From a virus (lineage: Duplodnaviria > Heunggongvirae > Uroviricota > Caudoviricetes): a DNA stretch of 22,176 nucleotides. Below are positions 1-12,345 of this stretch, piece after piece. Every line of letters starts with the position of its first letter. Position 1 is the stretch's first letter. The stretch is from positions 1-22,176 of the IMG/VR virus record IMGVR_UViG_2585427971_000007; one strand, written 5' to 3'. The notes below the pieces were generated by a model. The model had not been told where the DNA came from and did not search any database. It saw only the letters and a program-made list of their open reading frames with translations. Position numbers and translations under genes: made by a program.

Positions 1-549
1 ATGCAATTTAATATCCCTACGTTGCTTACACTGTTCCGTGTCATCCTTATCCCATTCTTTGTATTGGTCTTTTATTTGCCTGTCACCTGGTCGCCGTTTG
101 CCGCCGCGCTCATTTTCTGCGTCGCGGCGGTGACTGACTGGTTCGATGGTTTTCTGGCACGCCGCTGGAATCAGAGTACCCGGTTTGGTGCTTTCCTTGA
201 CCCTGTCGCAGATAAAGTTCTCGTGGCTATCGCCATGGTGCTGGTAACCGAGCATTACCACAGCTGGTGGGTGACCTTACCGGCAGCAACGATGATCGCC
301 CGTGAAATTATTATTTCTGCGCTACGCGAATGGATGGCGGAGTTGGGTAAACGCAGTAGCGTGGCTGTCTCCTGGATTGGAAAAGTGAAAACCACTGCCC
401 AGATGGTGGCGTTGGCATGGCTGCTGTGGCGTCCGAATATTTGGGTTGAGTACGCCGGTATTGCACTTTTCTTTGTGGCTGCGGTACTGACTCTGTGGTC
501 AATGTTGCAATATTTGAGCGCTGCGCGTGCAGATTTGCTTGATCAGTGA
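1..549 (+). CDS. pgsA: CDP-diacylglycerol--glycerol-3-phosphate 3-phosphatidyltransferase (phosphatidylglycerophosphate synthase), complete 182 aa
   Basis: 182-aa ORF starting at nt 1 with a hydrophobic multi-pass membrane profile; sequence recognised from memory as E. coli PgsA; followed by the glyW-cysT-leuZ tRNA cluster as in E. coli. Confidence 0.93.
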
Positions 550-599
550 TCGTTTCGGCGCAATTTTCAGCAAACGATCAAAAGTGGTGAAAAATATCG

Positions 600-627
600 T
601 TGACTCATCGCGCCAGGTAAGTAGAAT
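600..627 (+). promoter_or_regulatory. sigma70-type promoter for the tRNA operon (TTGACT, 16-bp spacer, TAGAAT, GC-rich discriminator)
   Basis: TTGACT at 600-605 and TAGAAT at 622-627, about 75 bp upstream of the first tRNA. Confidence 0.55.
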
Positions 628-700
628 GCAACGCATCGAACGGCGGCACTGATTGCCAGACGATAATAAAATCAAGTGATTAACTGATTGCTTGATGAAT

Positions 701-776
<76 letters not shown>

Positions 777-829
777 GTTTAAAAGGCATCGGCGTCAGCG
801 GATGTCTGGCTGAAAGGCCTGAAGAATTT

Positions 830-903
830 GGCGCGTTAACAAAGCGGTTATGTAGCGGATTGCAAATCCGTCTAGTCCGGTTCGACTCCGGAACGCGCCT
901 CCA
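830..903 (+). tRNA. cysT: tRNA-Cys (anticodon GCA)
   Basis: 74-nt sequence ggcgcgttaacaaagcggttatgtagcggattgcaaatccg...ggttcgactccggaacgcgcctcca with GCA anticodon and CCA end. Confidence 0.92.
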
Positions 904-915
904 CTTTTTTCCCGA

Positions 916-1002
916 GCCCGGATGGTGGAATCGGTAGACACAAGGGATTTAAAATCCCTCGGCGTTCGCGCTGTGCGGGTTCAAGTCCCGCTCCGGGTAC
1001 CA
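916..1002 (+). tRNA. leuZ: tRNA-Leu (anticodon TAA), long variable arm
   Basis: 87-nt sequence gcccggatggtggaatcggtagacacaagggatttaaaatccctc...gggttcaagtcccgctccgggtacca; class II tRNA with TAA anticodon. Confidence 0.92.
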
Positions 1003-1043
1003 TGGGAAAGATAAGAATAAAATCAAAGCAATAAGCAGTGTCG

Positions 1044-1070
1044 TGAAACCACCTTCGGGTGGTTTTTTTG
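1044..1070 (+). terminator. rho-independent terminator of the tRNA operon (possibly bidirectional, also downstream of int)
   Basis: GC stem aaaccacc/ggtggttt with ttcg loop followed by a run of 7 T; A-rich on the 5' side. Confidence 0.8.
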
Positions 1071-1132
1071 TATCTTCTTTCTCATTTCCGAAGATGCGTC
1101 CGAAGATGATTTTTCTCTGGACGCATCATCAT

Positions 1133-2149
1133 TCATTTTCTCTGGCCACCAACTACGGGCACTACTTTAACTTTCCGGTCATATGCTGCTGTCTGTCGCG
1201 GGTTCTTATGCCCGGAAATTGCTTGCTTCTCTTCCAGGCTGCCTTCCAGATCAGAGATACCTTTTGCTTTCAGATCATGAAATGTGAAGTCTATTTGCAG
1301 ATGAGGATATTTTTCCTGTGCTGCCGCTTTGACATCACGCCAACGAGAGTTAAAACCATCACGGGTATACTTGCCACCGGTAGTTTGATGAATCACAAAC
1401 AGGCTACTGATTCCCGTTTTTAATGGCAGAGAACGAGCCAGAGCTATCGCTTTCTGCAGACGAGGCGACCAGGCTTTGATTTGCTTAACGCCGGTTTTTC
1501 CCTGACGAATGTAGATCCCGGAATCGAACAGCTGGTCTTTCTGCAATGAAAGTACATCACTCTGTCTGGCCACGCATAAGTAGGCAATCTCCATTGCTAC
1601 GCGAACAACATCAGGAGACACTTCATAAACGGCCTGATATTCTTCATCCGTAATATAACGTTCGCGAGCTTTCTCTTTAAACTGTTTAACTCCCTGACAA
1701 GGATTCCTCTGAACATAACCTCGTTCATAACCCCAACGGAATACCCGGGACATAAAGCTTTTTTCCCTGTTTGCCTGAGTTCGGCTTGATAAACCGCGTT
1801 GATCCATATAGCGCCGAATATGTTCAGGTTTGATTTTATCCGGGTCGATCTTCCCGAAGACAGGCAGAACTTTTCCGGAATATTTTGTGTAGTCTTTCCG
1901 GGTTTCGACTGCCAAATCCATAAAATCAGGGGAGGTCATGAATTGTTCCGTGAGCGCCTGAAAAGTATTTCTTTCTTTTTCGTCACCGACCGCTTTTTCA
2001 TATGCCAGCCATACGGCTGATCGTGGTGCATCCAATGCGCACAGGCGTATCGCTTTGTTATCTTTATTCCTGAATTCGTAGGCCGCTTTGCCCTGGTAAA
2101 CACGAGGCGGCATCCAGTTATCTGCTGGGTTCTTTCTCTTTCCGGCCAT
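1133..2149 (-). CDS. Tyrosine recombinase, lambda-family phage integrase
   Basis: ORF with N-terminal basic arm-binding-type region (MAGKRKNPADNWMPPRVY) and C-terminal catalytic motifs (GKTGVKQ, HDLKAKG, GHKNPRQTAAYDR with the Tyr); start set at the ATG at 2149 by analogy with lambda Int; the longer ORF runs to 2179. Confidence 0.9.
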   Translation of the reverse strand: MAGKRKNPADNWMPPRVYQGKAAYEFRNKDNKAIRLCALDAPRSAVWLAYEKAVGDEKERNTFQALTEQFMTSPDFMDLAVETRKDYTKYSGKVLPVFGKIDPDKIKPEHIRRYMDQRGLSSRTQANREKSFMSRVFRWGYERGYVQRNPCQGVKQFKEKARERYITDEEYQAVYEVSPDVVRVAMEIAYLCVARQSDVLSLQKDQLFDSGIYIRQGKTGVKQIKAWSPRLQKAIALARSLPLKTGISSLFVIHQTTGGKYTRDGFNSRWRDVKAAAQEKYPHLQIDFTFHDLKAKGISDLEGSLEEKQAISGHKNPRQTAAYDRKVKVVPVVGGQRK

Positions 2150-2381
2150 TAAATATTGCTCCAAAATCAGGTTCATCATCTTTTCGCGTCGTCACCTCCT
2201 GTAAATTGCGAAATTTTATTGGGTTCATGAAATGGCCCCAGGTTGTTTTTGGGTGTCCGTCAGCCCTTTCCATGAAGAAAATTCCAGCCCGGCGAAGAGC
2301 CTCACATTGCTTTGATTTAAGTGGGCTTCCCGTCAGCTCGACCATTTCTTCTCTGGTGATTATGTCGTGATCGCTTTTCAT
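2118..2381 (-). CDS. Excisionase-like small DNA-binding protein
   Basis: 87-aa ORF immediately upstream of and overlapping the integrase start; RBS GAGGAAAGACC directly before the ATG. Confidence 0.6.
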   Translation of the reverse strand: MKSDHDIITREEMVELTGSPLKSKQCEALRRAGIFFMERADGHPKTTWGHFMNPIKFRNLQEVTTRKDDEPDFGAIFNGRKEKEPSR

Positions 2382-2541
2382 GGTCTTTCCTCATTATGTA
2401 GCTTATTGCGTCATCTGCCTTCTGGCAGGCACGGGCAATATCAGACTCGGTCAAAGTCTGTTTCCTGACGCTGGCCGACAGTCGACCAATTTTGATATCA
2501 AATGCGGAGAGCAGAGTTGCTCCCGGTTGCCATCGCAGCAT
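2317..2541 (-). CDS. Hypothetical small protein (74 aa from the ATG at 2541), C-terminus overlaps the xis start in another frame
   Basis: ATG at 2541 preceded by a GGAGG Shine-Dalgarno; basic low-complexity C-terminal tail makes the call uncertain. Confidence 0.4.
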   Translation of the reverse strand: MLRWQPGATLLSAFDIKIGRLSASVRKQTLTESDIARACQKADDAISYIMRKDHEKRSRHNHQRRNGRADGKPT

Positions 2542-2590
2542 TGTGATCCTCCGGTGTCTGGTGAATCGCAATGCTAGCGATGGTGAGTTT

Positions 2591-2773
2591 TTATTTCTGA
2601 TTAGGCGTAATCAGTTCTTGTGGGGTGAATGCCGATTTCTCCCGAGTGACCTTAATGTTTTCTGGCAGGTGTAGCCCAAGTTCGCAGCGGCTCCGTGCTT
2701 CAATAATGCCATTGGTACCATCGGCAAGTACCAGGTGAACCGCGTCACCACGCTTTAATGTGAGTTTAAGCAT
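2591..2773 (-). CDS. Hypothetical small protein (60 aa)
   Basis: Start codon overlaps the stop of the upstream 189-aa gene (ATGA overlap), suggesting translational coupling. Confidence 0.5.
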   Translation of the reverse strand: MLKLTLKRGDAVHLVLADGTNGIIEARSRCELGLHLPENIKVTREKSAFTPQELITPNQK

Positions 2774-3342
2774 TAGCGTATCCTCAGTGACCGTTCGCCG
2801 CGTTCCAGATGTGCGCCTGGTACCGGGTTTAATAACTCGGCTGGTGGTGTTTCTCCACGCGCCAGTATTTCGGCGGCAACCGCCTCCGCAGATTCAATCA
2901 CTTCTTTAATGGCTCGCTTGTTTGGTGTAATAACCGTTTCTACATCAACAAGTGACACGCCCTCATACTCATCCGGGATCTTATCTTTGCTATCGATAAT
3001 TACCCGGATAGCCCCCTGTGCATCAGTAAATGTGTTTTTTGCGGTTTTCAGTTTATCCAGGCCAGCAGCTTGCAGGCAGGTGAGCATATGCTTTCGAATT
3101 GCTTTTTCCTTGCCTTCAAAGGACGTCTTACGGGTTGCCAGGCGAGACATTTCTTCAGCGCAGGTATTGGCATTGCCCTGTAAATTACGGCAGATGACCA
3201 TCATGGCGTCCAGTTTGTCTCCCAGTTCTCCTTCCATGCCTTCAAGCGTGTCGGCGATCATCTCTGGCGTCAGTTCATCGGCGGTTTCTAACAGGTCAAT
3301 CAGACTGGCATATTCTTTTGCAATAGCGATAGCAGTGCTCAT
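2773..3342 (-). CDS. Phage early protein, Gam / Gp157-like (putative host-nuclease inhibitor); family assignment tentative
   Basis: 189-aa acidic protein with coiled-coil-like N-terminus; AGGAG RBS; start overlaps the stop of the upstream annealase gene; resemblance to Mu Gam / siphovirus Gp157 judged from memory only. Confidence 0.55.
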   Translation of the reverse strand: MSTAIAIAKEYASLIDLLETADELTPEMIADTLEGMEGELGDKLDAMMVICRNLQGNANTCAEEMSRLATRKTSFEGKEKAIRKHMLTCLQAAGLDKLKTAKNTFTDAQGAIRVIIDSKDKIPDEYEGVSLVDVETVITPNKRAIKEVIESAEAVAAEILARGETPPAELLNPVPGAHLERGERSLRIR

Positions 3343-5555
3343 GCTGTTTGCTCCTGTGCAGCGGTAAGGGCGGCGAGGCGTTCAGTTTTAATGTCGGTGA
3401 TACGGCGCAGACGTGATCCCAGATACGATGAATATTCTTTATCGCCTTTGGTTTCCGCTGCTTTCCTGTGTACATCCACTTCGCGGGCGATGAGGCCAAA
3501 TACCTTGTTTACTTCGTTGGCGGTTACCGCGGCGGCCAGCGTATTGGCAACGTTGATAAGCTTCTCATCCAGTTCCTTACGCAGACGGGTAGCATCTTCC
3601 GCATTCTCGCTGGCATTCTTGATATCAAACTCAGCTTTATTCCTCTGGCGGTATTCCGGATTGTCGTACAGGCCCATGAAAATATCGGCGCTGAATCCGA
3701 GAGGGGATAGCGCTTTCTTAACAGCATCCGTCCAGGATTTCTTCGGTGCTTCGCCGTCGCTTGTTGGTCCGTATTTAGTGTCGTAGATATAAGGTGTGCA
3801 TCCGTAAGCCTCGGACTCACCGCGTACCCCATTCAATATGTACCAGACTCTCACTTTCATGGTGTGGTGCATTTCACATAGGTACCCGCCAACACCGTCT
3901 TGAATCAGATCCCATTCTATTTTTTCACCAACCTGTTTTTTGCGAACTATTGGTGCGCCTTTATCAAAGCGCTCCTCCAGCACCTCTACCCCCCAGCCAA
4001 TACCAAATGGCCCAAATTCGCGAGTCGCTTTCATCGCTATATAAGTGCCGTTGATGGATGTGCCGCCGCCATTCTGAGAGAAAGCACTGGTGAAGCGCTC
4101 ATCGGTTTTGAATACGTTCTTCCACAATGCCAGGTTATCCGTGTCATCTGAGTCCTTTAACTCCGTTTCGATAGCTGAGATTGCATTCTGCCGCTTGTGC
4201 TCTTCGGCATGGATCCGCTCAACCAGCGCGTCAACGTTCTGCACCAGATCCTTTACCTGCTCGCTAAGTTGTTCTTGTGGAGGAGTCTCTTCTGCCAGGG
4301 TAATAGCTGCAGGTTCCCTCTGTGATACGGCGTTATTTTCAGGTACGTCATACACATGGCGAGGCGTGACAAACTGCTCACGCAACTGCTGCAAACTACG
4401 TTCTCCAGCATTTGCAGCTTCGCTTTTTTCGCCCTGATTTGAGGGTGTTTCTGACATCATCCCATCAATTGAGAATCGTCCGCCGCCGTGGTTGGTGACT
4501 TTTACATCATCCTTGGGTGCTGCTTCCTTTGGCTTCTCTTCAACAGCATTTGCATCACGCTGCCCGTTAGCTTGCAGCCAGTTGTCGATGTGACTGCGCA
4601 GGGATTGTGGGAAGTGGTACGTGTCTTTTGCGGGGGCGCTCTGAATAACACCGAATACTGATGCGCGGTCATAGGCAAGGATCTGATCCGTTGTGCGCAA
4701 GGCCATTGACCAGCGTTTAAAATCTTCCCTGTCCTGACTGATTATTTCGTCTGCCGCTTTCAGGATGCTGGGGGTGATTTTTTCCGGGGCAACAGGTAAC
4801 AGGGCGCAGGCAATTTCACGATCCAGAGTGGCGTGAGTCTGTTTGTAAGGACGTGCGGATGCTGTTTCTGGTTTTACCTCCGGCAGCATTTCATCTCGTT
4901 TACCGGGATTCTCTACCCATTTTTTTATAAATTTGGAGATAGTCCAACTGGTCGGGTTTTGTTCCTGGGTATCGCAACTTGCCAAAATTGCATGTACCAG
5001 ATTATTCAATCCAGCAATATGCATGTACTCGATGGGCTTACACGCCACCATGGCATCAAGAACGATGCGGTTAAACGCGTCAACCTCATCCTCACTGTCA
5101 GTATCACTGTTATCGAGCATCTCCAGGTATTCACGCGTCTGCACAAGCAATTCACTGTCGACTTCGTTGGCGTCGTGGCTGAACAGCAGAACGGCGGCGA
5201 ATCGTTCACGAGCCGGCAGTTTCATCAGGTCGCTAACCTGTGAGATATCTGCTGAACTGCAATCTGAATCAACAGGAGTGTTAACTACCCATTTTTCGCC
5301 ATCAAAACTGTGTTCTGTGGCAAACGTCTCATCAAACTCACCGACGCCTGGGCGCGGTTGGCCCGGGGCATCTTCCCAGATTTTAGGTTTGAAATAGTTG
5401 TCGCCGTGGTCAGGGTAGGCTTCCCACAATTTGCCGATGATGATGTTCTCGGCAACTTTTTTGTTAGGGGCGGCGATGGCGATGGCCAGCGCCGGGATCG
5501 CGCCGTTTTTGAGCGCGCCTTTTTTCGCTTCTAACAAGCCGTTAAAAATGGTCAT
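3339..5555 (-). CDS. Large early protein: N-terminal ~470 aa of unknown function fused to a C-terminal Rad52/Sak-like single-strand annealing domain
   Basis: 738-aa ORF with RBS GAGGAAAGACC; residues ~490-635 carry Rad52-family hallmarks (GGG...FGPFGIGWG ... GESEAYG ... TDAVKKALSPLGFSADIFMGLYD). Confidence 0.75.
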   Translation of the reverse strand: MTIFNGLLEAKKGALKNGAIPALAIAIAAPNKKVAENIIIGKLWEAYPDHGDNYFKPKIWEDAPGQPRPGVGEFDETFATEHSFDGEKWVVNTPVDSDCSSADISQVSDLMKLPARERFAAVLLFSHDANEVDSELLVQTREYLEMLDNSDTDSEDEVDAFNRIVLDAMVACKPIEYMHIAGLNNLVHAILASCDTQEQNPTSWTISKFIKKWVENPGKRDEMLPEVKPETASARPYKQTHATLDREIACALLPVAPEKITPSILKAADEIISQDREDFKRWSMALRTTDQILAYDRASVFGVIQSAPAKDTYHFPQSLRSHIDNWLQANGQRDANAVEEKPKEAAPKDDVKVTNHGGGRFSIDGMMSETPSNQGEKSEAANAGERSLQQLREQFVTPRHVYDVPENNAVSQREPAAITLAEETPPQEQLSEQVKDLVQNVDALVERIHAEEHKRQNAISAIETELKDSDDTDNLALWKNVFKTDERFTSAFSQNGGGTSINGTYIAMKATREFGPFGIGWGVEVLEERFDKGAPIVRKKQVGEKIEWDLIQDGVGGYLCEMHHTMKVRVWYILNGVRGESEAYGCTPYIYDTKYGPTSDGEAPKKSWTDAVKKALSPLGFSADIFMGLYDNPEYRQRNKAEFDIKNASENAEDATRLRKELDEKLINVANTLAAAVTANEVNKVFGLIAREVDVHRKAAETKGDKEYSSYLGSRLRRITDIKTERLAALTAAQEQTA

Positions 5556-5585
5556 TGGTCTTTCCTCATTACAGGTCAGTGGTTT

Positions 5586-5906
5586 TTAGTAGGGGAGCTC
5601 ATCGGTATCTGGCGTGTATTCGATGCAAAGTAACTGCTGGATTTTGTCATCGATAGCAGCAATACGCTGTTGGGCGTCGGCGACTGTTTTCTGTTTTTGT
5701 TCACGCAGTTGCTCGACCTGTAAACCGATGATGTCGATTGGCTCGGGCTGGTTAACGGTAATTTCAATTTCGCGGCTTTCCAGAAGGATGTACCTGTCTG
5801 GAAAATTTTTTGACATATCAACAGTCGCAACAAGCAGCTTTTCGTGGCTGAAAGTTGAAGTTGCATAATGAATAAAGAGTGTTACTGGGATGGTGCGCGC
5901 TTCCAT
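5586..5906 (-). CDS. Hypothetical phage early protein (106 aa)
   Basis: ATG preceded by an AAGGAG RBS; first gene of the leftward early operon. Confidence 0.6.
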   Translation of the reverse strand: MEARTIPVTLFIHYATSTFSHEKLLVATVDMSKNFPDRYILLESREIEITVNQPEPIDIIGLQVEQLREQKQKTVADAQQRIAAIDDKIQQLLCIEYTPDTDELPY

Positions 5907-6759
5907 AGCGACTCCTTGGTAATGTATACTCAGAGCCGATCAGCGAATATTGATCAGCTTCCATAGCGTCAGTGTCGTTGGTCTTTCCTCATCACAAGTT
6001 TGGTCACTTGTGATAAATCCGAATGGTTTGGTCGCCGTTCGGGGTAACTGGCCCGCCTTGTGCGGGTCTTTTGCTATCTAAAGGGTGCCGGTTACGTTTC
6101 CGGCGTCGTTATGTTTCCATTACGACCGTACAGGGCTGGTCAGGCCCGGGCTGGTCTTTCCTGTTTTGAGCTGGTCAGGCTCATGGTCAACGCTGGTCAG
6201 GCGTGGTACTTCCTCCGGTCTTTCCCTGGTGTCACGCTGCGGGTTTGGCCTCTCCTGTTGGGGACTCAGGCACAGCGATAAAACCTGGCTGTGTGAAAAA
6301 ATGGCCCATCGTGCGGACTGGGCAAAGACTAAACACAGCAAATTGATGATGGGCGCCCGGAATCGAACCGGGTAACGGGCAGGGAGTTCCCGTTAAACAC
6401 CTGTTCACCACAACCGGGAGCGCACTCCGCCATTTCAAAATTTAACGACAAAGCTCAAAGTTGAGTCGATGAAGTGCGCTCTCGTGTTGTAGCCAGGACT
6501 CTTCCCTGGTGGTCACACCGTATCGCCTTGATGGTGAATCAATCGCTCATACCTGGCTGTGGCTTGCACATTCCGGCTACCTGCTATGGAGACAACGCGT
6601 TAAGGCTCCGCTTCCATCCAGACCGCTTCGACACATGTGCCATATGCCGGTGAAGTCTTTCCCTCTGTCACCGTGTTGGCGCCGACGCGCAAAATTTGGT
6701 GCCGTCTTTCCGGCTGTCAGAACGTGTTTCTGAACAACTGCCGCTGGGTAAGCGTTGTT

Positions 6760-6870
6760 GATGAAAGTGACTTTACAATTTGTATTTGTAATGGTCAATG
6801 TGTTTTTAAAAAATAATTTGTAGTGAGGGGCAAAAAAATATTCACTGTGTAAAGGTGTTTTTGTGTTAGG
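6760..6870. promoter_or_regulatory. AT-rich putative OL/pL-type operator-promoter region downstream of the repressor gene
   Basis: Repeated TTTGTA(A/T) motifs (caatttgtatttgtaatgg, aataatttgtagtgagg) resembling those between the repressor and cro genes. Confidence 0.4.
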
Positions 6871-6995
6871 GGAAAGTTGCATGCCAGCAGCGGCTGGCCT
6901 GGAAATTTGAACTGAACTATTTTGTCTGGTTTTTGGCTTCAAGTAGTTCTTTTAGCAGTAGATCGAAGTGCTCTCTTTTTCTTTTAGCTCATTGA

Positions 6996-7328
6996 TTAAT
7001 TTATTTTTTCGCTCTCAGGCAGTCCTCTGAATAGTTGCAGTAGAGCCTGTTCTTGCGGGGTTAGTTCTTGATTGTAATTACCCGGGTGTAGTGTGGATTC
7101 ATCCAAATATTCCCCTTCATTCATGAAGAAAAAATGAACAGGGTATCCGGTCACTTTTGCTAGCTTGTCTAATTTATCTTTTCTTGGAGTTACCCCATTA
7201 CACCATGCCTGAACTGATTGAGCCGTAACCCCAATATGGCGAGCTAACTCAGATTGAGACCAGCCTAAGTCTTTTAGAATCCGTTGTAGTCGGCTAGCAA
7301 AAGCCATGTTTTTCGTTTTTGTGTTCAT
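6996..7328 (-). CDS. Phage repressor, short XRE-family helix-turn-helix protein with no peptidase domain
   Basis: HTH signature WSQSELARHIGVTAQSVQAWCNG; divergent from a Cro-like gene; start uncertain (alternatives at 7343 TTG, 7328 ATG, 7307 ATG). Confidence 0.8.
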   Translation of the reverse strand: MNTKTKNMAFASRLQRILKDLGWSQSELARHIGVTAQSVQAWCNGVTPRKDKLDKLAKVTGYPVHFFFMNEGEYLDESTLHPGNYNQELTPQEQALLQLFRGLPESEKIN

Positions 7329-7343
7329 ACCGTAAGGATACAA

Positions 7344-7426
7344 GGTTTAATTGTAGGGAGCATTGCAAATATAATTTGTAATTACAGTTATTGTTTGTAA
7401 TGATGACGCGGACACAAGGAGTCCAT
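7344..7426. promoter_or_regulatory. Divergent promoter/operator region of the immunity switch
   Basis: Intergenic region between divergent repressor and cro genes with repeated TTTGTAAT motifs (aatttgtaattacag, ttgtttgtaatgatg) and TTGCAA -35-like hexamer. Confidence 0.55.
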
Positions 7427-7657
7427 ATGGATAAACAACTGCAAGACAAAATTCTTTCCGTAATGAGTCAATCCGAGTTAGGGCGGCGATTAGGGAAAAA
7501 ACCACAAACGGTAAGCCTCTGGTTCAAAGGACGGGTTCCCGGTGAAGAGGTTTTGCGCACATCTGAAGCTCTTGAATGGCGCGTGACCCCTCATGATCTT
7601 AGACCGGATCTTTACCCAAACCCAGATGACAGCTTGCCTAAAACGGAAGCAGCTTAA
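7427..7657 (+). CDS. Cro/Apl-like HTH regulator (76 aa from the ATG at 7427)
   Basis: AAGGAG RBS 5 nt upstream of the ATG; HTH motif SQSELGRRLGKKPQTVSLWFKG; divergent from the repressor. Confidence 0.8.
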   Translation: MDKQLQDKILSVMSQSELGRRLGKKPQTVSLWFKGRVPGEEVLRTSEALEWRVTPHDLRPDLYPNPDDSLPKTEAA

Positions 7658-7715
7658 CTGTTGGTGAGCCCCAAATCTGATTAAGCGTAATCAATTTTTA
7701 GCGACAGGAGACGCT

Positions 7716-8192
7716 ATGGAAAACCAAGAGGAATTACAAAAAGAGATTTTGACCTGGGCGGCAAGGGCAGGGCAGGAACTCGTCACGATTGAAATCTGCC
7801 GGGCCTGGTTCAGTCAGGGACGCAATGATGAGTTGAGACTACATGAATTTGAGGACGCGGACGGCAACGTGGACTGGAGAGCCATCAACAACAATCGGCA
7901 GAAAATCTTTCGCTGGTTACGTGGCGAGACAACGGCGGCGCGCCGAAAAACTCAGGTGCTGGCCAGTGTGATGAAAGCCGTGCTACCCGCAGAACGGCGG
8001 GCACGTCTGGAGTCGCCGGGCGATCCCGTTTTGCTGGCAACGCTGGCGGCAAAAGAAGGGGTGGAAGCGATTAACGCTGTACATCTCCACTTCGCGCCAG
8101 AGTTAACTATTCAGGAAATTGACGAAGCAATAGCGGCGCTGGTAGCGACGCGAGGAGCAGTGATACGCACTGCGCAAGACCACCATGCATGA
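7716..8192 (+). CDS. Phage regulatory protein, CII-like / YdaT-like (tentative)
   Basis: 158-aa ORF with AGGAG RBS directly downstream of cro; functional call rests on position in the switch operon only. Confidence 0.45.
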   Translation: MENQEELQKEILTWAARAGQELVTIEICRAWFSQGRNDELRLHEFEDADGNVDWRAINNNRQKIFRWLRGETTAARRKTQVLASVMKAVLPAERRARLESPGDPVLLATLAAKEGVEAINAVHLHFAPELTIQEIDEAIAALVATRGAVIRTAQDHHA

Positions 8193-8231
8193 GCGCCTGA
8201 CCAGCGTTTAACTTATACCGAGGAAAGACCG

Positions 8232-8456
8232 ATGTTAAGACATATTGACCGCATTACCTGGCGTAACGGCTGGCACCTGAATGGACGCCCGGCACATGTT
8301 GCAGAGATCCGCCCCATATTCGATGGCCGCGTCGCAGCTGCACGTTCTGTATGGGAAAAGTACGAAGAAGAAAAAGCGAAACTGCGTGAGCAAAATCTCT
8401 CTGGCGCTGCCTATGAGGCTGGCTGTCGCGTTCTCTCAGAGGCTTTGGGCATATGA
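8232..8456 (+). CDS. Hypothetical protein (74 aa)
   Basis: ATG preceded by GAGGAAAGACC RBS; last gene of the rightward early operon before the convergent junction. Confidence 0.5.
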   Translation: MLRHIDRITWRNGWHLNGRPAHVAEIRPIFDGRVAAARSVWEKYEEEKAKLREQNLSGAAYEAGCRVLSEALGI

Positions 8457-8597
8457 ACATCCTCCCGTTACTTGATAGACCCATAGCCTTCCAGAGAAGT
8501 TTTATCCGTCTTGAAATGGTGATGCGCCGCGCGATAAATGCACTCTATCTTGTGCGATAAATGGCATCCACGCGGCGTTTCATTATTTGAAAAAGAA

Positions 8598-9170
8598 TTA
8601 CATTTCAGGTTGCGTTATGACAGTCCCAACAGGGTGATAGCGGTAGATCGTTGACAGTCCAATATCATAGATAATTGCCAGCCGCTTTCTGTCATACCCT
8701 TTCTGGAGCAATCTTGCGATCTGCTCATGCTGCTCCTTCGTCAGTTTCGGGCGACGTCCTCCAACTCTTCCTTGTGCTCGCGCAGCAGCCAGTCCTGCCA
8801 GCGTGCGCTCAACTATCAGTTCACGCTCCATTTCTGCCAGTGCACCCATCATATGAAAAAAGAACCTTCCCATCGGAGTGCTGGTATCGATTGAATCCGT
8901 CAGACTGCGAAAATTGACACCTTTTGCGCGTAGCTCTTCTGTGAGAGCAATGAGGTGTTTCATTCTTCTACCCAACCGATCCAGCTTCCAGACCACCAAT
9001 GTATCCCCTCTTTTAAGGCACTTTAAAGCGCGTTTCAGGCCTGGTCGTTCCGACTTGGTTCCGCTCATTTTGTCCTCAAAAATCTGTTCACATCCTGCGC
9101 ACATTAATGCATTGCGTTGCAAATCTGTGTTTTGGTCATTTGTTGACACACGTATGTAGCCAATCAGCAT
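8598..9170 (-). CDS. Serine DNA invertase, Pin/Gin/Hin/Cin family (190 aa)
   Basis: N-terminus MLIGYIRVSTNDQNTDLQRNAL with catalytic Ser and a C-terminal HTH; AAGGGAG RBS; lies adjacent to the invertible fibre segment; start set at the internal ATG at 9170 rather than the longer ORF to 9299. Confidence 0.92.
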   Translation of the reverse strand: MLIGYIRVSTNDQNTDLQRNALMCAGCEQIFEDKMSGTKSERPGLKRALKCLKRGDTLVVWKLDRLGRRMKHLIALTEELRAKGVNFRSLTDSIDTSTPMGRFFFHMMGALAEMERELIVERTLAGLAAARAQGRVGGRRPKLTKEQHEQIARLLQKGYDRKRLAIIYDIGLSTIYRYHPVGTVITQPEM

Positions 9171-9226
9171 TAAAAATACTCCCTTTTGAGTGGTTAAAGT
9201 ACTGAGATAATGTGGGGAGGATTTGA

Positions 9227-9252
9227 GAGATAAACGTTGGTTTGGGGGAAGG
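9227..9252. promoter_or_regulatory. Putative invertase crossover site, left (gix/hix-like)
   Basis: Junction where inverted-repeat identity begins; reverse complement reads tcccccAAACCAAcgtttatctctc, resembling Din-family sites (AAACC..GGTTT). Confidence 0.5.
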
Positions 9253-9436
9253 CTCTGCACTGCCTGTTGGTGTGCCTGTTCCATGGCCCACCGCCACACC
9301 GCCAGCAGGCTGGTTAAAGTGCGACGGGCGCGCCTTTACAAAAGAACAATATCCTGTTCTGGCCAGAGTCTACCCGACCCTCCGTCTTCCCGATTTACGC
9401 GGTGAGTTTATCCGTGGATGGGACGACGGGCGCAAG
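9237..9436. repeat. Inverted repeat, left copy (~200 bp, 3 mismatches in the first 50 bp, otherwise identical) encoding the shared part of the fibre C-terminus
   Basis: Direct comparison with the reverse complement of 10656-10852. Confidence 0.9.
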
Positions 9437-9721: not shown

Positions 9722-10336
9722 TCAACTGGCAAGTGCCAGTGGCGCTTCCGGCCAGCTGATTTCAGGTGCCGTGCTGATATCCAGTGCGTTCAGCTCGTCG
9801 ATATAATCCAGCACGGCGTTCAGTTTTGCCGTTTCTTCTGGTGTCAGACTGCGACCAGCACGCAGTTTGAGGTTGATAAGATCGACTGACGCCATCGCCT
9901 GTTTCACCCGTTGCTGGCGTTGCTGTCTGGCAACCTCCAGTTCTGCGGCTCGCTGCCGTTCAGTATCGGTTACCCACGCCTCACCGTTCCAGGTATCCCA
10001 TGGCGTGGCTGGCTGTTTTGTGGTGGTGTCCGCCGGGTAATCACCCGGTTGGGTAATCAGAACAGGGTTACCGTTCTCCGTGCTGTATACCGTCTCGCCG
10101 CGGTGATCAGGCACATGCTCCCACCCGTTCAGCGTGGCAGTCCGGCAAACCACGTAACCCGAAATTGCCTCCGGCGGTGCATCGGCGCACGAATGTGCCG
10201 GAGTACCCACCCCAAGGGCGAGATACTCCACAGAGGATGAGGTGTATTCCCGGGTTTCCTCGTCATAGTGATATACAGTGATATCGCCCGCTACAGTGGC
10301 GATACCGTTTTCATCCAGAACTGCAGTGTTACTCAT
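9722..10336 (-). CDS. Tail fibre assembly protein (P2 gpG / Mu U-like)
   Basis: 204-aa ORF whose start overlaps the fibre stop (TAATG); position and composition typical of assembly chaperones. Confidence 0.8.
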   Translation of the reverse strand: MSNTAVLDENGIATVAGDITVYHYDEETREYTSSSVEYLALGVGTPAHSCADAPPEAISGYVVCRTATLNGWEHVPDHRGETVYSTENGNPVLITQPGDYPADTTTKQPATPWDTWNGEAWVTDTERQRAAELEVARQQRQQRVKQAMASVDLINLKLRAGRSLTPEETAKLNAVLDYIDELNALDISTAPEISWPEAPLALAS

Positions 10337-12345
10337 TAAACTGCCCTCACAATGTAATTAAGTGCAATGCTACGGGGTCTGACAGTGATACCCTTCGCAT
10401 ACCCGCTTCTGATAGAGGTCAGAATAGTAGCCTGCATACCATTGTCTGACATTGCCACGACAGGATCGCTGAATGTTGTCCCGTCCGGCATTTTAAAGCT
10501 GCCCTCACGAAGGTCTGTAATGGAATCTTCATTGTTGAATCCCATGCCGACTATCCCCGAGGTTCCCGTAGTGTCCTGGTTATAATAATCCAGCATTGCT
10601 GTTCTTAACAGCGTTGCCCCTTGTGCGGACAGCAACTTACGTCCTGTATCAACTTTGCGCCCGTCGTCCCATCCACGGATAAACTCACCGCGTAAATCGG
10701 GAAGACGGAGGGTCGGGTAGACTCTGGCCAGAACAGGATATTGTTCTTTTGTAAAGGCGCGCCCGTCGCACTTTAACCAGCCTGCTGGCGGTGTGGCGGT
10801 GGGCCATGGAACCGGTACACCAACAGGCAATGCAGAGCCTTCCCCCAAACCAAGGTAATTGAGGACATCTTTTATACTGCCCTTAGCGATAATAGCGCGA
10901 CCAATAGCTGTAAGGGTTGCCAGCGCTGCGCGGTCTGCTCCGGTAAAATAAGGCAACCGATCTGCTGCAGTGGCAAGTCCTGCCAGAGCAGTGAGCGTGG
11001 CATCTGCCGGTTGTTTTCCGTTTGCCAGATCGTATGCAGCCTTGACCGCTTTCGGTGTGGCGGCCAGTATTTCAGACGTGCTGTTGATAGCACTGCTCAG
11101 TTGTACGGTGCCTTTTGCCGTCAGCGAGGCAGCAGGCACTCCCGTTATCTGACTCCACGGGTGAGTGTGGCTGACGGGCGCCTTGCCGGCTGCAAGGTCG
11201 TATGCAGCCTTGACCGCCTTCGGCGTGGCAGCCTCAATTTCTGATTGACTGTCCGTGGCGCTGCTCAGTTGTACGGTGCCTTTTGCCGTCAGTGAAGCCG
11301 CAGGCACTCCCGTTATCTGACTCCACGGGTGAGTGTGGCTGGCAGGCGCCTTGCCGGCTGCCAGGTCGTATGCAGCCTTGACCGCTTTCGGTGTGGCGGC
11401 CAGTATTTCAGACGTGCTGTTGATGGCACTGCTCAGTTGTACGGTGCCTTTTGCCGTCAGCGAGGCAGCTGGCACTCCCGTTATCTGACTCCACGGGTGA
11501 GTGTGGCTGACGGGCGCCTTGCCGGCTGCAAGGTCGTATGCAGCCTTGACCGCCTTCGGCGTGGCAGCCTCAATTTCTGATTGACTGTCCGTGGCGCTGC
11601 TCAGTTGTACGGTGCCTTTTGCCGTCAGTGAAGCCGCAGGCACTCCCGTTATCTGACTCCACGGGTGAGTGTGGCTGGCAGGCGCCTTGCCGGCTGCCAG
11701 GTCGTATGCAGCCTTGACCGCTTTCGGTGTGGCGGCCAGTATTTCAGACGTGCTGTTGATGGCACTGCTCAGTTGTACGGTGCCTTTTGCCGTCAGCGAG
11801 GCAGCTGGCACTCCCGTTATCTGACTCCACGGGTGAGTGTGGCTGACGGGCGCCTTGCCGGCTGCAAGGTCGTATGCAGCCTTGACCGCCTTCGGCGTGG
11901 CAGCCTCAGTTTCTGATTGACTGTCCGTGGCGCTGCTCAGTTGTACGGTGCCTTTTGCCGTCAGTGAAGCCGCAGGCACTCCCGTTATCTGACTCCACGG
12001 GTGAGTGTGGCTGGCAGGCGCCTTGCCGGCTGCCAGGTCGTATGCAGCCTTGACCGCTTTTGGTGTGGCGGCCAGCGTTTCAGAGGTGCTGTTGGTGGCA
12101 CTGCTCAGTTGGGTGAACCCCTTAGCTGTCAGTGTCGCGTCCGGGTGGTTACGGGAACGTACGTGTTCAGCCAGTGACTGTGCGGCTTCCTCCGTTTTCT
12201 TCTTCAGCCATTTCGTCCTGTTTGCCAGTTGCCGGGGGGCTCGATTTGATATCCCGTCTGCACCACCCAGAACCGGATCTGATGTCTCCAGTTGATAGAT
12301 ATTTTCTTCCCACTTTTCTGTTTCATTCAGGTTTCCCATAATCAA
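10336..12345 (-). CDS. Tail fibre protein (P2 gpH-like), C-terminus lying in the invertible segment
   Basis: 669-aa ORF; N-terminus and the motif HPDATLTAKGFTQLSSATNSTSETLAATPKAVKA recalled from P2 gpH-type fibres; internal tandem repeats. Confidence 0.9.
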   Translation of the reverse strand: MIMGNLNETEKWEENIYQLETSDPVLGGADGISNRAPRQLANRTKWLKKKTEEAAQSLAEHVRSRNHPDATLTAKGFTQLSSATNSTSETLAATPKAVKAAYDLAAGKAPASHTHPWSQITGVPAASLTAKGTVQLSSATDSQSETEAATPKAVKAAYDLAAGKAPVSHTHPWSQITGVPAASLTAKGTVQLSSAINSTSEILAATPKAVKAAYDLAAGKAPASHTHPWSQITGVPAASLTAKGTVQLSSATDSQSEIEAATPKAVKAAYDLAAGKAPVSHTHPWSQITGVPAASLTAKGTVQLSSAINSTSEILAATPKAVKAAYDLAAGKAPASHTHPWSQITGVPAASLTAKGTVQLSSATDSQSEIEAATPKAVKAAYDLAAGKAPVSHTHPWSQITGVPAASLTAKGTVQLSSAINSTSEILAATPKAVKAAYDLANGKQPADATLTALAGLATAADRLPYFTGADRAALATLTAIGRAIIAKGSIKDVLNYLGLGEGSALPVGVPVPWPTATPPAGWLKCDGRAFTKEQYPVLARVYPTLRLPDLRGEFIRGWDDGRKVDTGRKLLSAQGATLLRTAMLDYYNQDTTGTSGIVGMGFNNEDSITDLREGSFKMPDGTTFSDPVVAMSDNGMQATILTSIRSGYAKGITVRPRSIALNYIVRAV
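10656..10852. repeat. Inverted repeat, right copy (partner of 9237-9436)
   Basis: Reverse complement matches 9237-9436. Confidence 0.9.
10841..10866. promoter_or_regulatory. Putative invertase crossover site, right (gix/hix-like)
   Basis: tcccccAAACCAAGGTaattgagga at the boundary between the constant fibre region and the inverted repeat. Confidence 0.5.
11010..12140. repeat. Tandem array inside the fibre gene: ~6.7 copies of a 168-bp (56-aa) unit in two alternating variants (336-bp super-period)
   Basis: Protein repeats ASLTAKGTVQLSSA..ATPKAVKAAYDLAAGKAP(A/V)SHTHPWSQITGVP; plus-strand shadow ORFs recur every 336 bp with identical sequence. Confidence 0.9.

Follow-up and report, generated by a model that had tools for sequence, protein, structure and literature searches.

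A widespread structured RNA and an RprA-like small RNA module in the gene-free gap ahead of a prophage early-left operon

Introduction

Small RNAs (sRNAs) from prophage early leaders, antisense RNAs, RNA antiterminators and tRNA-linked sRNAs are all known kinds of genetic element. The sRNA DicF of the Qin prophage is released from a longer transcript by RNase processing, and both 3′ETS-leuZ and the stable RNAs of the T4 tRNA cluster are non-coding RNAs linked to tRNAs. For the Hfq-dependent host sRNA RprA, Papenfort et al. are said to have described in 2015 a short form with a functional pairing region that acts on ricI. RNase E cuts RprA to give a shorter 3′ form (PMC6202311). A further precedent is the put RNA of HK022, a lambdoid phage that lacks N-dependent antitermination (PMC9378689). 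Here we analyze an interval of about 1.1 kb (positions 5907–6995) in a 22,176-nt stretch of the Caudoviricetes record IMGVR_UViG_2585427971_000007, a stretch henceforth termed the window, in which an initial annotation had found no credible open reading frame (ORF) between the repressor gene and the early-left operon of a prophage. In our assessment, this gap is probably a non-coding RNA transcription unit that doubles as the long leader of the early-left operon. Its core element is a structured RNA of about 180 nt that recurs, almost always unannotated, in many unrelated enterobacterial phages, and an sRNA module resembling the 3′ part of RprA lies downstream of it on the same strand.

Results

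The structured RNA occupies positions 6652–6473 on the minus strand (this and all other features are collected in Table 1). A covariance model, termed R1, was built from 31 diverse copies, and a search with it returned exactly one copy in each of 100 loci, at 126–182 bits. When the proposed fold was imposed on 81 distinct sequences, 94.3% of the pair cells were standard, compared with 30–44% when the partners were slid against each other. Two-sided changes occurred at 16 pairs (244 cells), and none of 500 shuffles reached the observed values. The pseudoknot is based on near-invariance and on one exchange of C-G for A-U in two sequences. An all-against-all covariation scan was swamped by G-U-rich false pairs. 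The alignment also reveals the functional strand: several pairs are frequently G-U (6-37, 9-34, 47-113, 158-172 and 161-169) and would be A-C on the complement, so that the RNA must be read from the minus strand of the window, the sense of the promoter-like site pL and of the early-left genes. All 21 nucleotides of one strand, GGUAGCCGGAAUGUGCAAGCC, are conserved across genera.

None of this is represented in current resources as far as they were searched. Rfam 15 gave no match at gathering level for 6473–6652 or elsewhere in the gap, and with an expect value (E) of up to 10 over 5500–7450 the core was overlapped only by a chance Zeta-pan match of 17 bits. The covariance-model search proposed in the initial annotation thus yielded nothing from Rfam beyond a sub-threshold match to RprA and noise, whereas the purpose-built model R1 matches the window at 139.7 bits. 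No occurrence of the 21-mer or its sub-strings came up in about 8 million full texts, and in a literature whose coverage is incomplete we found no description or Rfam family for the structured RNA or the phage RprA-like module, and nothing relevant on RprA-like prophage sRNAs or on structured phage RNAs near tRNA-Arg.

The family extends far beyond prophages related to the window, which the initial annotation had missed. A sensitive BLAST search of the gap against phages found a core of about 170 nt at 72–77% identity in unrelated phages, almost always unannotated, among them SPN1S, Tyrion, PAT1, SopranoGao, D6 and SJ46; the RNA is also present in phages P1, P7 and phiV10 and in Stx2 phages. 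The exact 21-mer occurs in at least 120 IMG/VR contigs and, among species representatives, in Kosakonia, Citrobacter, Klebsiella, Enterobacter, Kluyvera, Buttiauxella and other Enterobacteriaceae. A 39-nt query around it matched 2134 of 5426 complete Escherichia coli genomes (about 40%), at 2334 chromosomal and 543 plasmid places that were never annotated.

The order of modules around the RNA recurs across phages. In mEp460 and Stx2a_1447, cI is followed by a terminator, TTGCG-N5-CGCAA operators, a TTGCAT-17-TATCTT promoter, the structured RNA about 40 nt past the predicted start, and the early-left genes, which is the map position seen in the window. At several loci a sigma-70 promoter and operator palindrome end about 7–40 nt 5′ of helix P1, in other contigs with the promoter type of mEp460 about 7–9 nt before it, and in a group with ATTACC-N5-GGTAAT operators one long hairpin separates the promoter from the RNA. 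A strict sigma-70 scan accepted only 14 of 109 upstream contexts because the common TTGCGT/TATCTT promoters fall below its −35 threshold. Other settings differ more strongly. Phage P1 (NC_005856) carries an unannotated copy at 71021–71217 between trnI and ban (locus L145 of our collection), within the C1-controlled ban operon, which also contains an annotated 'dicF-like region', tRNA-Asn and tRNA-Thr and is therefore rich in non-coding RNAs. In SPN1S, the RNA lies in a small cassette between the terminase and portal genes. Since the genes downstream vary with context, with Ban helicase, ParB-like proteins and integrase among them, the structured RNA is, judged from its sequence surroundings, a mobile module of repressor-controlled early transcripts and not the leader of a single gene.

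In the window, operator-like motifs noted by the initial annotation proved to be real: the pattern TTRCAR-N7-TTGTAA occurs in the 22 kb only at 6773, 7363 and 7382, three sites against 0.37 expected. The site at 6798–6770 overlaps the first of these operators, points leftward and is the sole sigma-70-like site in 5500–7500; we regard it as pL, a candidate promoter with a predicted start near 6763. One hairpin of the leader that would follow (6713–6700) shows a compensatory change to GCCCG/CGGGC in phage BUCT708 (OM816834), whose gene order is shared with the window's prophage region at 71% DNA identity. A check for lambda-type nut sites found boxA-like strings of the GCGCUC type and hairpins whose loop is GAAAGA or GAAGAGU. 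The first early-left gene lacks an arginine-rich motif at its N-terminus and thus does not look N-like, and no N-like ORF was found.

The gap itself carries no coding signal. As stated by the initial annotation, its ORFs are short and overlapping, which holds for every ORF of at least 40 amino acids (aa). A scan of ten of them against Pfam and PHROGs gave no credible family match; two sub-threshold matches, to DUF6531 (E 0.0018, 19 bits against a cut-off of 24.1) and to phrog_6855 (E 0.017), were rejected. The PGAP annotation of the E. coli SK1144 chromosome, to which window positions 1–8519 are 99.98% identical, has nothing between the 106-aa gene and the repressor. Alignment to BUCT708 contains many non-triplet indels (17, 2, 4, 7, 1, 8 and 24 nt among others), so that the comparison with a related prophage which had been suggested gave a non-coding indel pattern together with compensatory changes in stems. 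The conserved protein homologue across the region that would have argued for a gene was thus found neither in Pfam nor in PHROGs, and the indel pattern does not point to one.

Its right edge, by contrast, has to be moved: 6917–6995 encodes the C-terminus of the repressor, a coding part overlooked earlier. Because the intact repressor ends at window position 6917, the true gap on sequence grounds is 5907–6916, about 1010 nt. Relative to SK1144, the window's repressor has 1-nt T deletions in T runs at 6976 and 7004, and its frame stops at 6996. In all 25 listed top genomes the stretch matching 5907–6995 exceeds the query by one base, as expected from the deletion at 6976; that at 7004 was compared with SK1144 only. 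Either the window's repressor is truly frameshifted, by an inactivating or altering mutation, or the source assembly contains homopolymer sequencing errors. The division into a GC-rich and an AT-rich half that had been described is visible as a GC content of 0.54–0.56 over 6000–6750 and 0.37 over 6750–7050, although the AT-rich part at 6917–6995 is coding. The reported repeats are likewise genuine, with five copies of GTCTTTCC against 0.02 expected and nine of TGGTC on the plus strand and none on the minus strand (shuffle mean 1.8).

The best Rfam match in the gap is to RprA (RF00034; 37.4 bits, E 0.022, 6294–6404, minus strand). As a member of RF00034 the module was rejected, the gathering score being 70. 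The resemblance lies in the 3′ half, which comprises UUUGCUGUGUUUAGUCUUUGCCC (henceforth the seed), a hairpin GCCCA...UGGGC nearly identical to the RprA terminator, and six U residues. The conserved 3′ single-stranded segment, intrinsic terminator and U tail of RprA are thus present in the module; its 5′ stem-loops and rpoS-pairing region are not. The 5′ half of the Rfam model aligns, with mismatched pairs and lower posterior probability, to the tRNA-like element described below. The combination of GCUGUGU(G/U)UAGUC with an intrinsic terminator recurs at 44 of about 143 loci, 200–900 nt 3′ of the structured RNA and on the same strand, never on the opposite one. Across these 44 loci the seed is invariant while at least five different terminator stems occur, and at two loci (L017 and L029) the identity to RprA reaches AACAACGAA. 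At another, L064, the seed begins 46 nt after a tRNA-Arg and the operon terminator is used; there the module is a tRNA 3′ trailer. We conclude from these sequence comparisons that many temperate enterobacterial phages appear to carry an sRNA module that shares the 3′ segment of RprA and stands outside the Rfam family.

In the window, nothing other than the module's terminator obviously blocks the way from pL to the early-left genes, and the scan detected no further promoter-like site. Directly after the U tail, CACACAGC (6291–6270, minus strand) is complementary to the seed sequence GCUGUGUG, and the same arrangement follows the terminators of other loci, with ACACAACU or CACAGCUG. A transcript that passes the terminator could have its seed masked in this way, or could form a long stem around the terminator.

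Between the structured RNA and the module lie two further elements. The long, interrupted hairpin X recurs beside the structured RNA in other phages, with arms that differ in sequence and keep their complementarity (GAGAGCGCACU/AGUGCGCUC in the window, GAGAGCAUUG/CAGUGCUCUC in SPN1S); in phages with a tRNA it is placed between the structured RNA and that tRNA. Being an interrupted duplex of about 17 bp next to tRNAs, it may serve for processing of the RNase III type or as a structural insulator. In Stx2a_1447 (L147, 3195–3300) and SPN1S (L003, around 2390–2495) the apical part of hairpin X holds two T-loop-like hairpins, CUGG-UUCAAUU-CCAG and GUCCG-UUCGAUU-CGGAC, directly 5′ of tRNA-Arg or of its former place; they could be a double T-loop module or tRNA debris.

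The tRNA-like element keeps a T-arm and a partial acceptor only. As a functional tRNA it was rejected: ARAGORN reported none, and Rfam gave a tRNA-Sec match of 19.3 bits (E 1.2) against a gathering score of 47. At least eight loci have tRNA-Arg(UCU) 60–115 nt 3′ of the structured RNA on the same strand (SPN1S, L006, L012, L013, L038, L039, L064 and L070), and in SPN1S, L012, L013, L070 and L064 this genuine tRNA stands at the position equivalent to the tRNA-like element. In phages P1 and D6, tRNA-Ile2(CAU) is found about 12–16 nt 5′ of the structured RNA, again on the same strand. Several loci (e.g., L009, L040 and L147) contain ...GCCGGAGAUCAGCACCGGCCACCA..., a hairpin with CCACCA that resembles a tRNA acceptor/T-arm minihelix and stands before the RprA-like module where a full tRNA is absent; it may be a processing signal.

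The distal stretch, 6295–5907, was aligned across three lineages, namely the window type, the BUCT708 type and the L047 type. Its right part is an array of short motifs, strongly enriched and wholly strand-biased, whose number is conserved in relatives and whose spacing is not. The three GCTGGTCAGGC units are each flanked by a different complementary 4-mer (ACGC/GCGT, GAGC/GCTC and GGGC/GCCC). That 6079–6295 is an array of hairpins finds no support in its folding energy, which is ordinary on both strands. The adjoining segment 5937–6078 folds at −62.1 kcal/mol (z −7.0) on the plus strand and at −47.5 kcal/mol on the minus strand. Its four-helix architecture is common to all three lineages; two stems are wholly replaced in compensatory fashion while the loops UUGGUC/UUUGGUC are kept, the terminator stem is replaced as well, and several positions are G-U on the plus and A-C on the minus strand. 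Its candidate promoter is weak, with a TATACT −10 at 5925–5930 and a poor −35. We consider the segment a good candidate for a convergent cis-antisense RNA, which would cover the ribosome-binding site (RBS) and start of an upstream ORF and the 5′ untranslated region (UTR) of the 106-aa gene. This upstream ORF overlaps the start of the first early-left gene and may be translated or incidental. Read as minus-sense RNA, the array contains GACCA strings to which the UGGUC loops of the antisense candidate are complementary, a match that may or may not be meaningful.

Table 1. Features in and around the gap, in window coordinates.
Feature	Position	Strand	Remarks
Early-left operon		leftward	integrase, DUF4224 (excisionase-like), Gam-like Gp157 protein, 738-aa exonuclease-like protein, 106-aa protein
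First early-left gene	5586–5906	minus	106 aa, phrog_2479 (PHROG of unknown function)
Upstream ORF	5818–5964	minus	48 aa here; 37 aa, annotated, in BUCT708; same frame over LIGSEYT
Candidate cis-antisense sRNA	5937–6078	plus	stem-loops 5938–5983, 5991–6014, 6019–6042; GC-rich terminator 6043–6075 and U run
Motif array	6079–6295		three GCTGGTCAGGC units (6135–6145, 6170–6180, 6192–6202) and several GGTCTTTCC units
sRNA module	6296–6342	minus	RprA-like segment UUUGCUGUGUUUAGUCUUUGCCC (seed), terminator hairpin 6323–6304, U6 tail 6301–6296
tRNA-like element/remnant	6347–6411	minus	T-arm CCCGG-UUCGAUU-CCGGG at 6372–6356, canonical
Hairpin X	6408–6489	minus	long, interrupted; ~17 bp and apical domain; −36.7 kcal/mol, z −5.1
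Structured RNA, ~180 nt	6473–6652	minus	widespread unannotated family; model R1 139.7 bits, E 1e-41
Hairpin P5	6509–6493	minus	GAAGAGA-type loop
Helix P4	6542–6528	minus	loop CACC pairs with GGUG 6519–6516 (pseudoknot)
Variable hairpin	between invariant 21-nt strand and helix P4	minus	
Invariant 21-mer	6581–6561	minus	GGUAGCCGGAAUGUGCAAGCC
Helix P2	6625–6619 with 6583–6574	minus	long; closes variable hairpin bearing CCUU motif
Helix P1	6649–6629	minus	9-bp 5′ hairpin
5′ leader (predicted)	6653–6763	minus	small hairpins including GCCG-GAAAGA-CGGC (6713–6700)
pL, promoter-like	6798–6770	minus	−35 TTGACC 6798–6793, 17-nt spacer, −10 TAAAGT 6775–6770
Left operator	6773–6791		TTACAA-N7-TTGTAA, 19-bp palindrome
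Repressor (HTH_3/CI-like)	6917–7307	minus	130 aa in intact relatives; Pfam HTH_3
Two further operators of the same type	7363–7381, 7382–7400		between repressor and cro-like gene
Genes after the early-left operon			gap, helix-turn-helix repressor (minus), then rightward Cro/YdaS-like and CII/YdaT-like genes

The window is a piece of E. coli chromosome, and its prophage insertion adjoins the glyW-cysT-leuZ tRNA genes (three host tRNAs by ARAGORN, 701–1002), and its integrase gene (1133–2179) neighbors leuZ, the last of the three. The 3′ trailer of this tRNA operon is a known sRNA sponge, 3′ETS-leuZ. The identity to the SK1144 prophage stops at 8519, just past the early-right genes; beyond it, on the minus strand, lie a gene for a serine recombinase of the invertase type and tail/tail-fibre genes (8598–9299, then 9722–12345). 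None of the 5426 genomes spans this junction, the best matches beginning at query position 215–221, so it goes back to a large deletion, to misassembly or to a rearrangement between prophages that is specific to the strain. A tandem repeat at 11023–12111 (unit 336 nt, 3.2 copies, 98% identity, sub-period 168 nt) sits within a 669-aa tail-fibre-like ORF (10336–12345, minus strand). As for the 'Stenotrophomonas' phage BUCT708 (locus L002), its close IMG/VR relatives carry the same Enterobacteriaceae-restricted structured RNA. Because of these relatives and the gene order and identity it shares with an E. coli prophage, Stenotrophomonas looks doubtful as its host.

Discussion

Read as a non-coding RNA transcription unit, the gap would be used in the following way. 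Once the repressor leaves the operator at 6773–6791, RNA polymerase would start near 6763 and run leftward. The first product would be the self-folding RNA of about 180 nt, with five helices, a pseudoknot and an invariant 21-nt strand, followed by the long hairpin, probably a processing site or insulator, and by the tRNA-like element. Last would come a module of about 50 nt, in which an intrinsic terminator follows a single-stranded segment that is nearly the same as the 3′ part of RprA from the host. This terminator would close a non-coding RNA of about 470 nt, which could be cut into smaller products, and would at the same time limit transcription into the recombination, excision and integration genes. 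Any polymerase that passed it would cross a further untranslated stretch of about 390 nt, where the convergent plus-strand antisense RNA of about 140 nt could pair with the 5′ UTR of the first gene and with the upstream ORF. The RprA-like module may then act in an Hfq-type manner, and the antisense RNA may exert control over the first gene. Two of the four explanations listed in the initial annotation gain comparative support from these data: a long structured leader, from the covariation-backed RNA downstream of an operator-overlapped promoter, and a small RNA locus, from the terminator-ended sRNA module and the antisense candidate.

Several points weigh against this reading. The start and the 3′ ends of transcripts, like their processing, are deduced from the DNA. 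The −10 element of pL is TAAAGT, and the site matches the consensus at just 9 of 12 positions. The match to RprA stays below the gathering score (37.4 against 70) and involves only the 3′ half of the model, and the RprA-like modules at the other loci score worse than E 0.1 with that model. Neither the tRNA-like fold nor the sRNA fold is more stable than its shuffles. The motif array at 6079–6295 falls outside a non-coding RNA operon model, and the weak antisense promoter overlaps the RBS and start of the first gene, whose conservation it would share in any case. Finally, the whole trnI-ban region of phage P1 was dispensable for plaque formation in a CRISPR interference screen (PMC10695390), so the structured RNA is not essential for lytic growth of P1 in the laboratory.

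What the structured RNA does within such a unit can be answered in more than one way. It could be a stable trans-acting RNA that is made early on induction or infection, has a protein or RNA of the host or the phage as its partner (acting, for example, as sponge, as mimic or in counter-defence) and is merely co-transcribed with tRNAs and sRNAs in a non-coding RNA cassette. Its occurrence as an independent module in lambdoid pL leaders, in the P1 ban operon and in the SPN1S terminase–portal cassette fits this idea, as do the tRNAs on either side, the long hairpins that could release it, the copies with an apparent promoter of their own and a terminator-like hairpin directly after, and a complex pseudoknotted fold typical of protein- or ligand-binding RNAs. 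A search for host targets with the 39-nt core, however, returned mobile-element copies only, with no complementarity to a core host gene, in a search that cannot detect matches below about 20 nt; we give this role a substantial chance, short of even. Alternatively, the RNA could be a cis-acting processive antiterminator and functional analogue of HK022 put, in which case the nascent RNA would bind its own polymerase and carry it past the RprA-like terminator and Rho into the early-left genes. In keeping with this idea, repressor-controlled early transcripts from at least four unrelated promoter/operator settings carry the RNA at their 5′ end or close to it, in each case in the direction of the downstream genes, and putL is likewise located just downstream of PL (PMC9378689). 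The functional-looking intrinsic terminator between the RNA and the operon in the window, the single promoter-like site, the first gene that is not N-like, the apparent lack of an N-like protein in these phages, and an invariant 21-nt strand with an Enterobacteriaceae-limited distribution, as expected from contact with a conserved host machine, point the same way. On the other side, the RNA has no similarity to put and is about 2.5 times longer, and a search of the complete HK022 genome with R1 at E up to 10 brings up no relevant match. Each phage genome has a single copy, and the right operon lacks one, whereas HK022 carries both putL and putR. In phage P1 the RNA lies 2.3 kb from the promoter, after tRNAs and tci genes, in the non-essential region, and in SPN1S-type cassettes only a tRNA and a small ORF follow it. 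Downstream terminator-like sites show no excess, an uninformative comparison (same strand in 70 of 110 contexts, opposite strand in 58 of 110), and efficient read-through would conflict with making an sRNA by termination. We consider such a function conceivable and on balance unlikely. The broader proposal is, to us, rather improbable: that the RNA of about 180 nt represents a new class of nascent-RNA antiterminator with which a large proportion of temperate enterobacterial phages (lambdoid phages without N, phiV10- and SPN1S-like phages and phage P1) would modify E. coli RNA polymerase with no protein factor, that it has been missed despite its presence in about 40% of complete E. coli genomes, and that it is linked to a phage-encoded RprA 3′ segment through which induction would rewire Hfq regulation in the host. 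The remaining probability for the role of the structured RNA is shared by functions in processing or stability and by possibilities not yet conceived.

Two further explanations concern the gap as a whole or its distal part. The initial annotation had also considered a binding-site array, an idea that survives for the motif array at 6079–6295 (TGGTC and GTCTTTCC) and nowhere else. The TGGTC and GTCTTTCC units (5979–6225, plus 6655 and 6704) would then be a DNA-level array of protein-binding sites, such as iterons or regulator sites, in keeping with their strong enrichment, a unit number conserved in three lineages despite varying spacing, and the ordinary folding energy of 6079–6295 on both strands. 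Against this stand the complete strand asymmetry of 9 to 0 and the lack of a candidate binding protein; moreover, the differing yet complementary flanks of the GCTGGTCAGGC units, and the position of several units in loops of compensatorily changing stems, suggest single-stranded hairpins instead, and we regard a DNA-level array as quite unlikely. The last of the earlier explanations, remains of a deleted gene, holds for small pieces at most, namely a degenerate copy of a gene junction at 5974–5999 and the tRNA-like remnant. That the gap is mostly decayed coding sequence, left by genes lost from the head of the early-left operon, is to our minds very improbable. Some features do look like debris: the 26-nt junction copy reproduces the boundary of the 106-aa and 738-aa genes including the RBS, with ATG changed to ACG, GGAAAGACC recurs and is similar to that junction RBS, and a tRNA-like remnant stands where relatives have a real tRNA. 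Yet the largest block is a covariation-supported RNA with 21 of 21 nucleotides kept across genera, no gap ORF has a family match, conservation with compensatory stem changes is not drift, and no intact conserved ORF was seen at homologous positions in 145 loci.

If the family is real and expressed, a structured RNA that ranks among the commonest unannotated ones in E. coli mobile elements has so far escaped notice. Its carriers include phages P1 and P7, Stx2-converting and phiV10-type phages, and hundreds of ST131 genomes. Since it stands at the head of repressor-controlled early transcripts, it might let temperate phages without N bypass terminators, or be an RNA of early host takeover. Through the RprA-like module, prophage induction could feed into the host Hfq network tied to RpoS, biofilm formation and plasmid transfer. 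Annotation pipelines now leave such kilobase gaps blank, and a covariance model would fill them.

Comparison with known systems

The antisense candidate at 5937–6078 resembles lambda OOP and P22 sar in being short, highly structured, terminator-ended, convergent with early mRNA and placed over an RBS and start; it differs from both in sequence and in its weak candidate promoter. With the tRNA-trailer sRNAs, which are co-transcribed with tRNAs and released by tRNA-processing enzymes, the locus shares the setting exemplified by the module that follows tRNA-Arg at L064, but the window has a tRNA-like remnant only and there is no sequence relationship. DicF, like the proposed products of the gap, is a small regulatory RNA inside a repressor-controlled prophage early operon, and in phage P1 a dicF-like region is annotated in the very operon that carries the structured RNA; its sequence and seed are different, however, and neither a large structured RNA nor a tRNA is associated with it. 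RprA is closest to the sRNA module, with the 3′ portion GCUGUGU(G/U)UAGUCUUUGCCC and a very similar terminator and U tail in common, whereas the module lies in a prophage early leader instead of the chromosomal rprA locus and the phage terminators vary. The structured RNA, finally, differs from HK022 put in size and architecture (about 180 nt with five helices and a pseudoknot, against about 70 nt with two stem-loops and a triplex), has no similarity to it by sequence or model, occurs once per genome, and is a candidate for antitermination. Both are nonetheless non-coding elements of the nascent early transcript, placed ahead of terminators and shortly after a repressor-controlled promoter; both belong to lambdoid phages without, or apparently without, N-dependent antitermination and are restricted to enteric hosts (PMC9378689).

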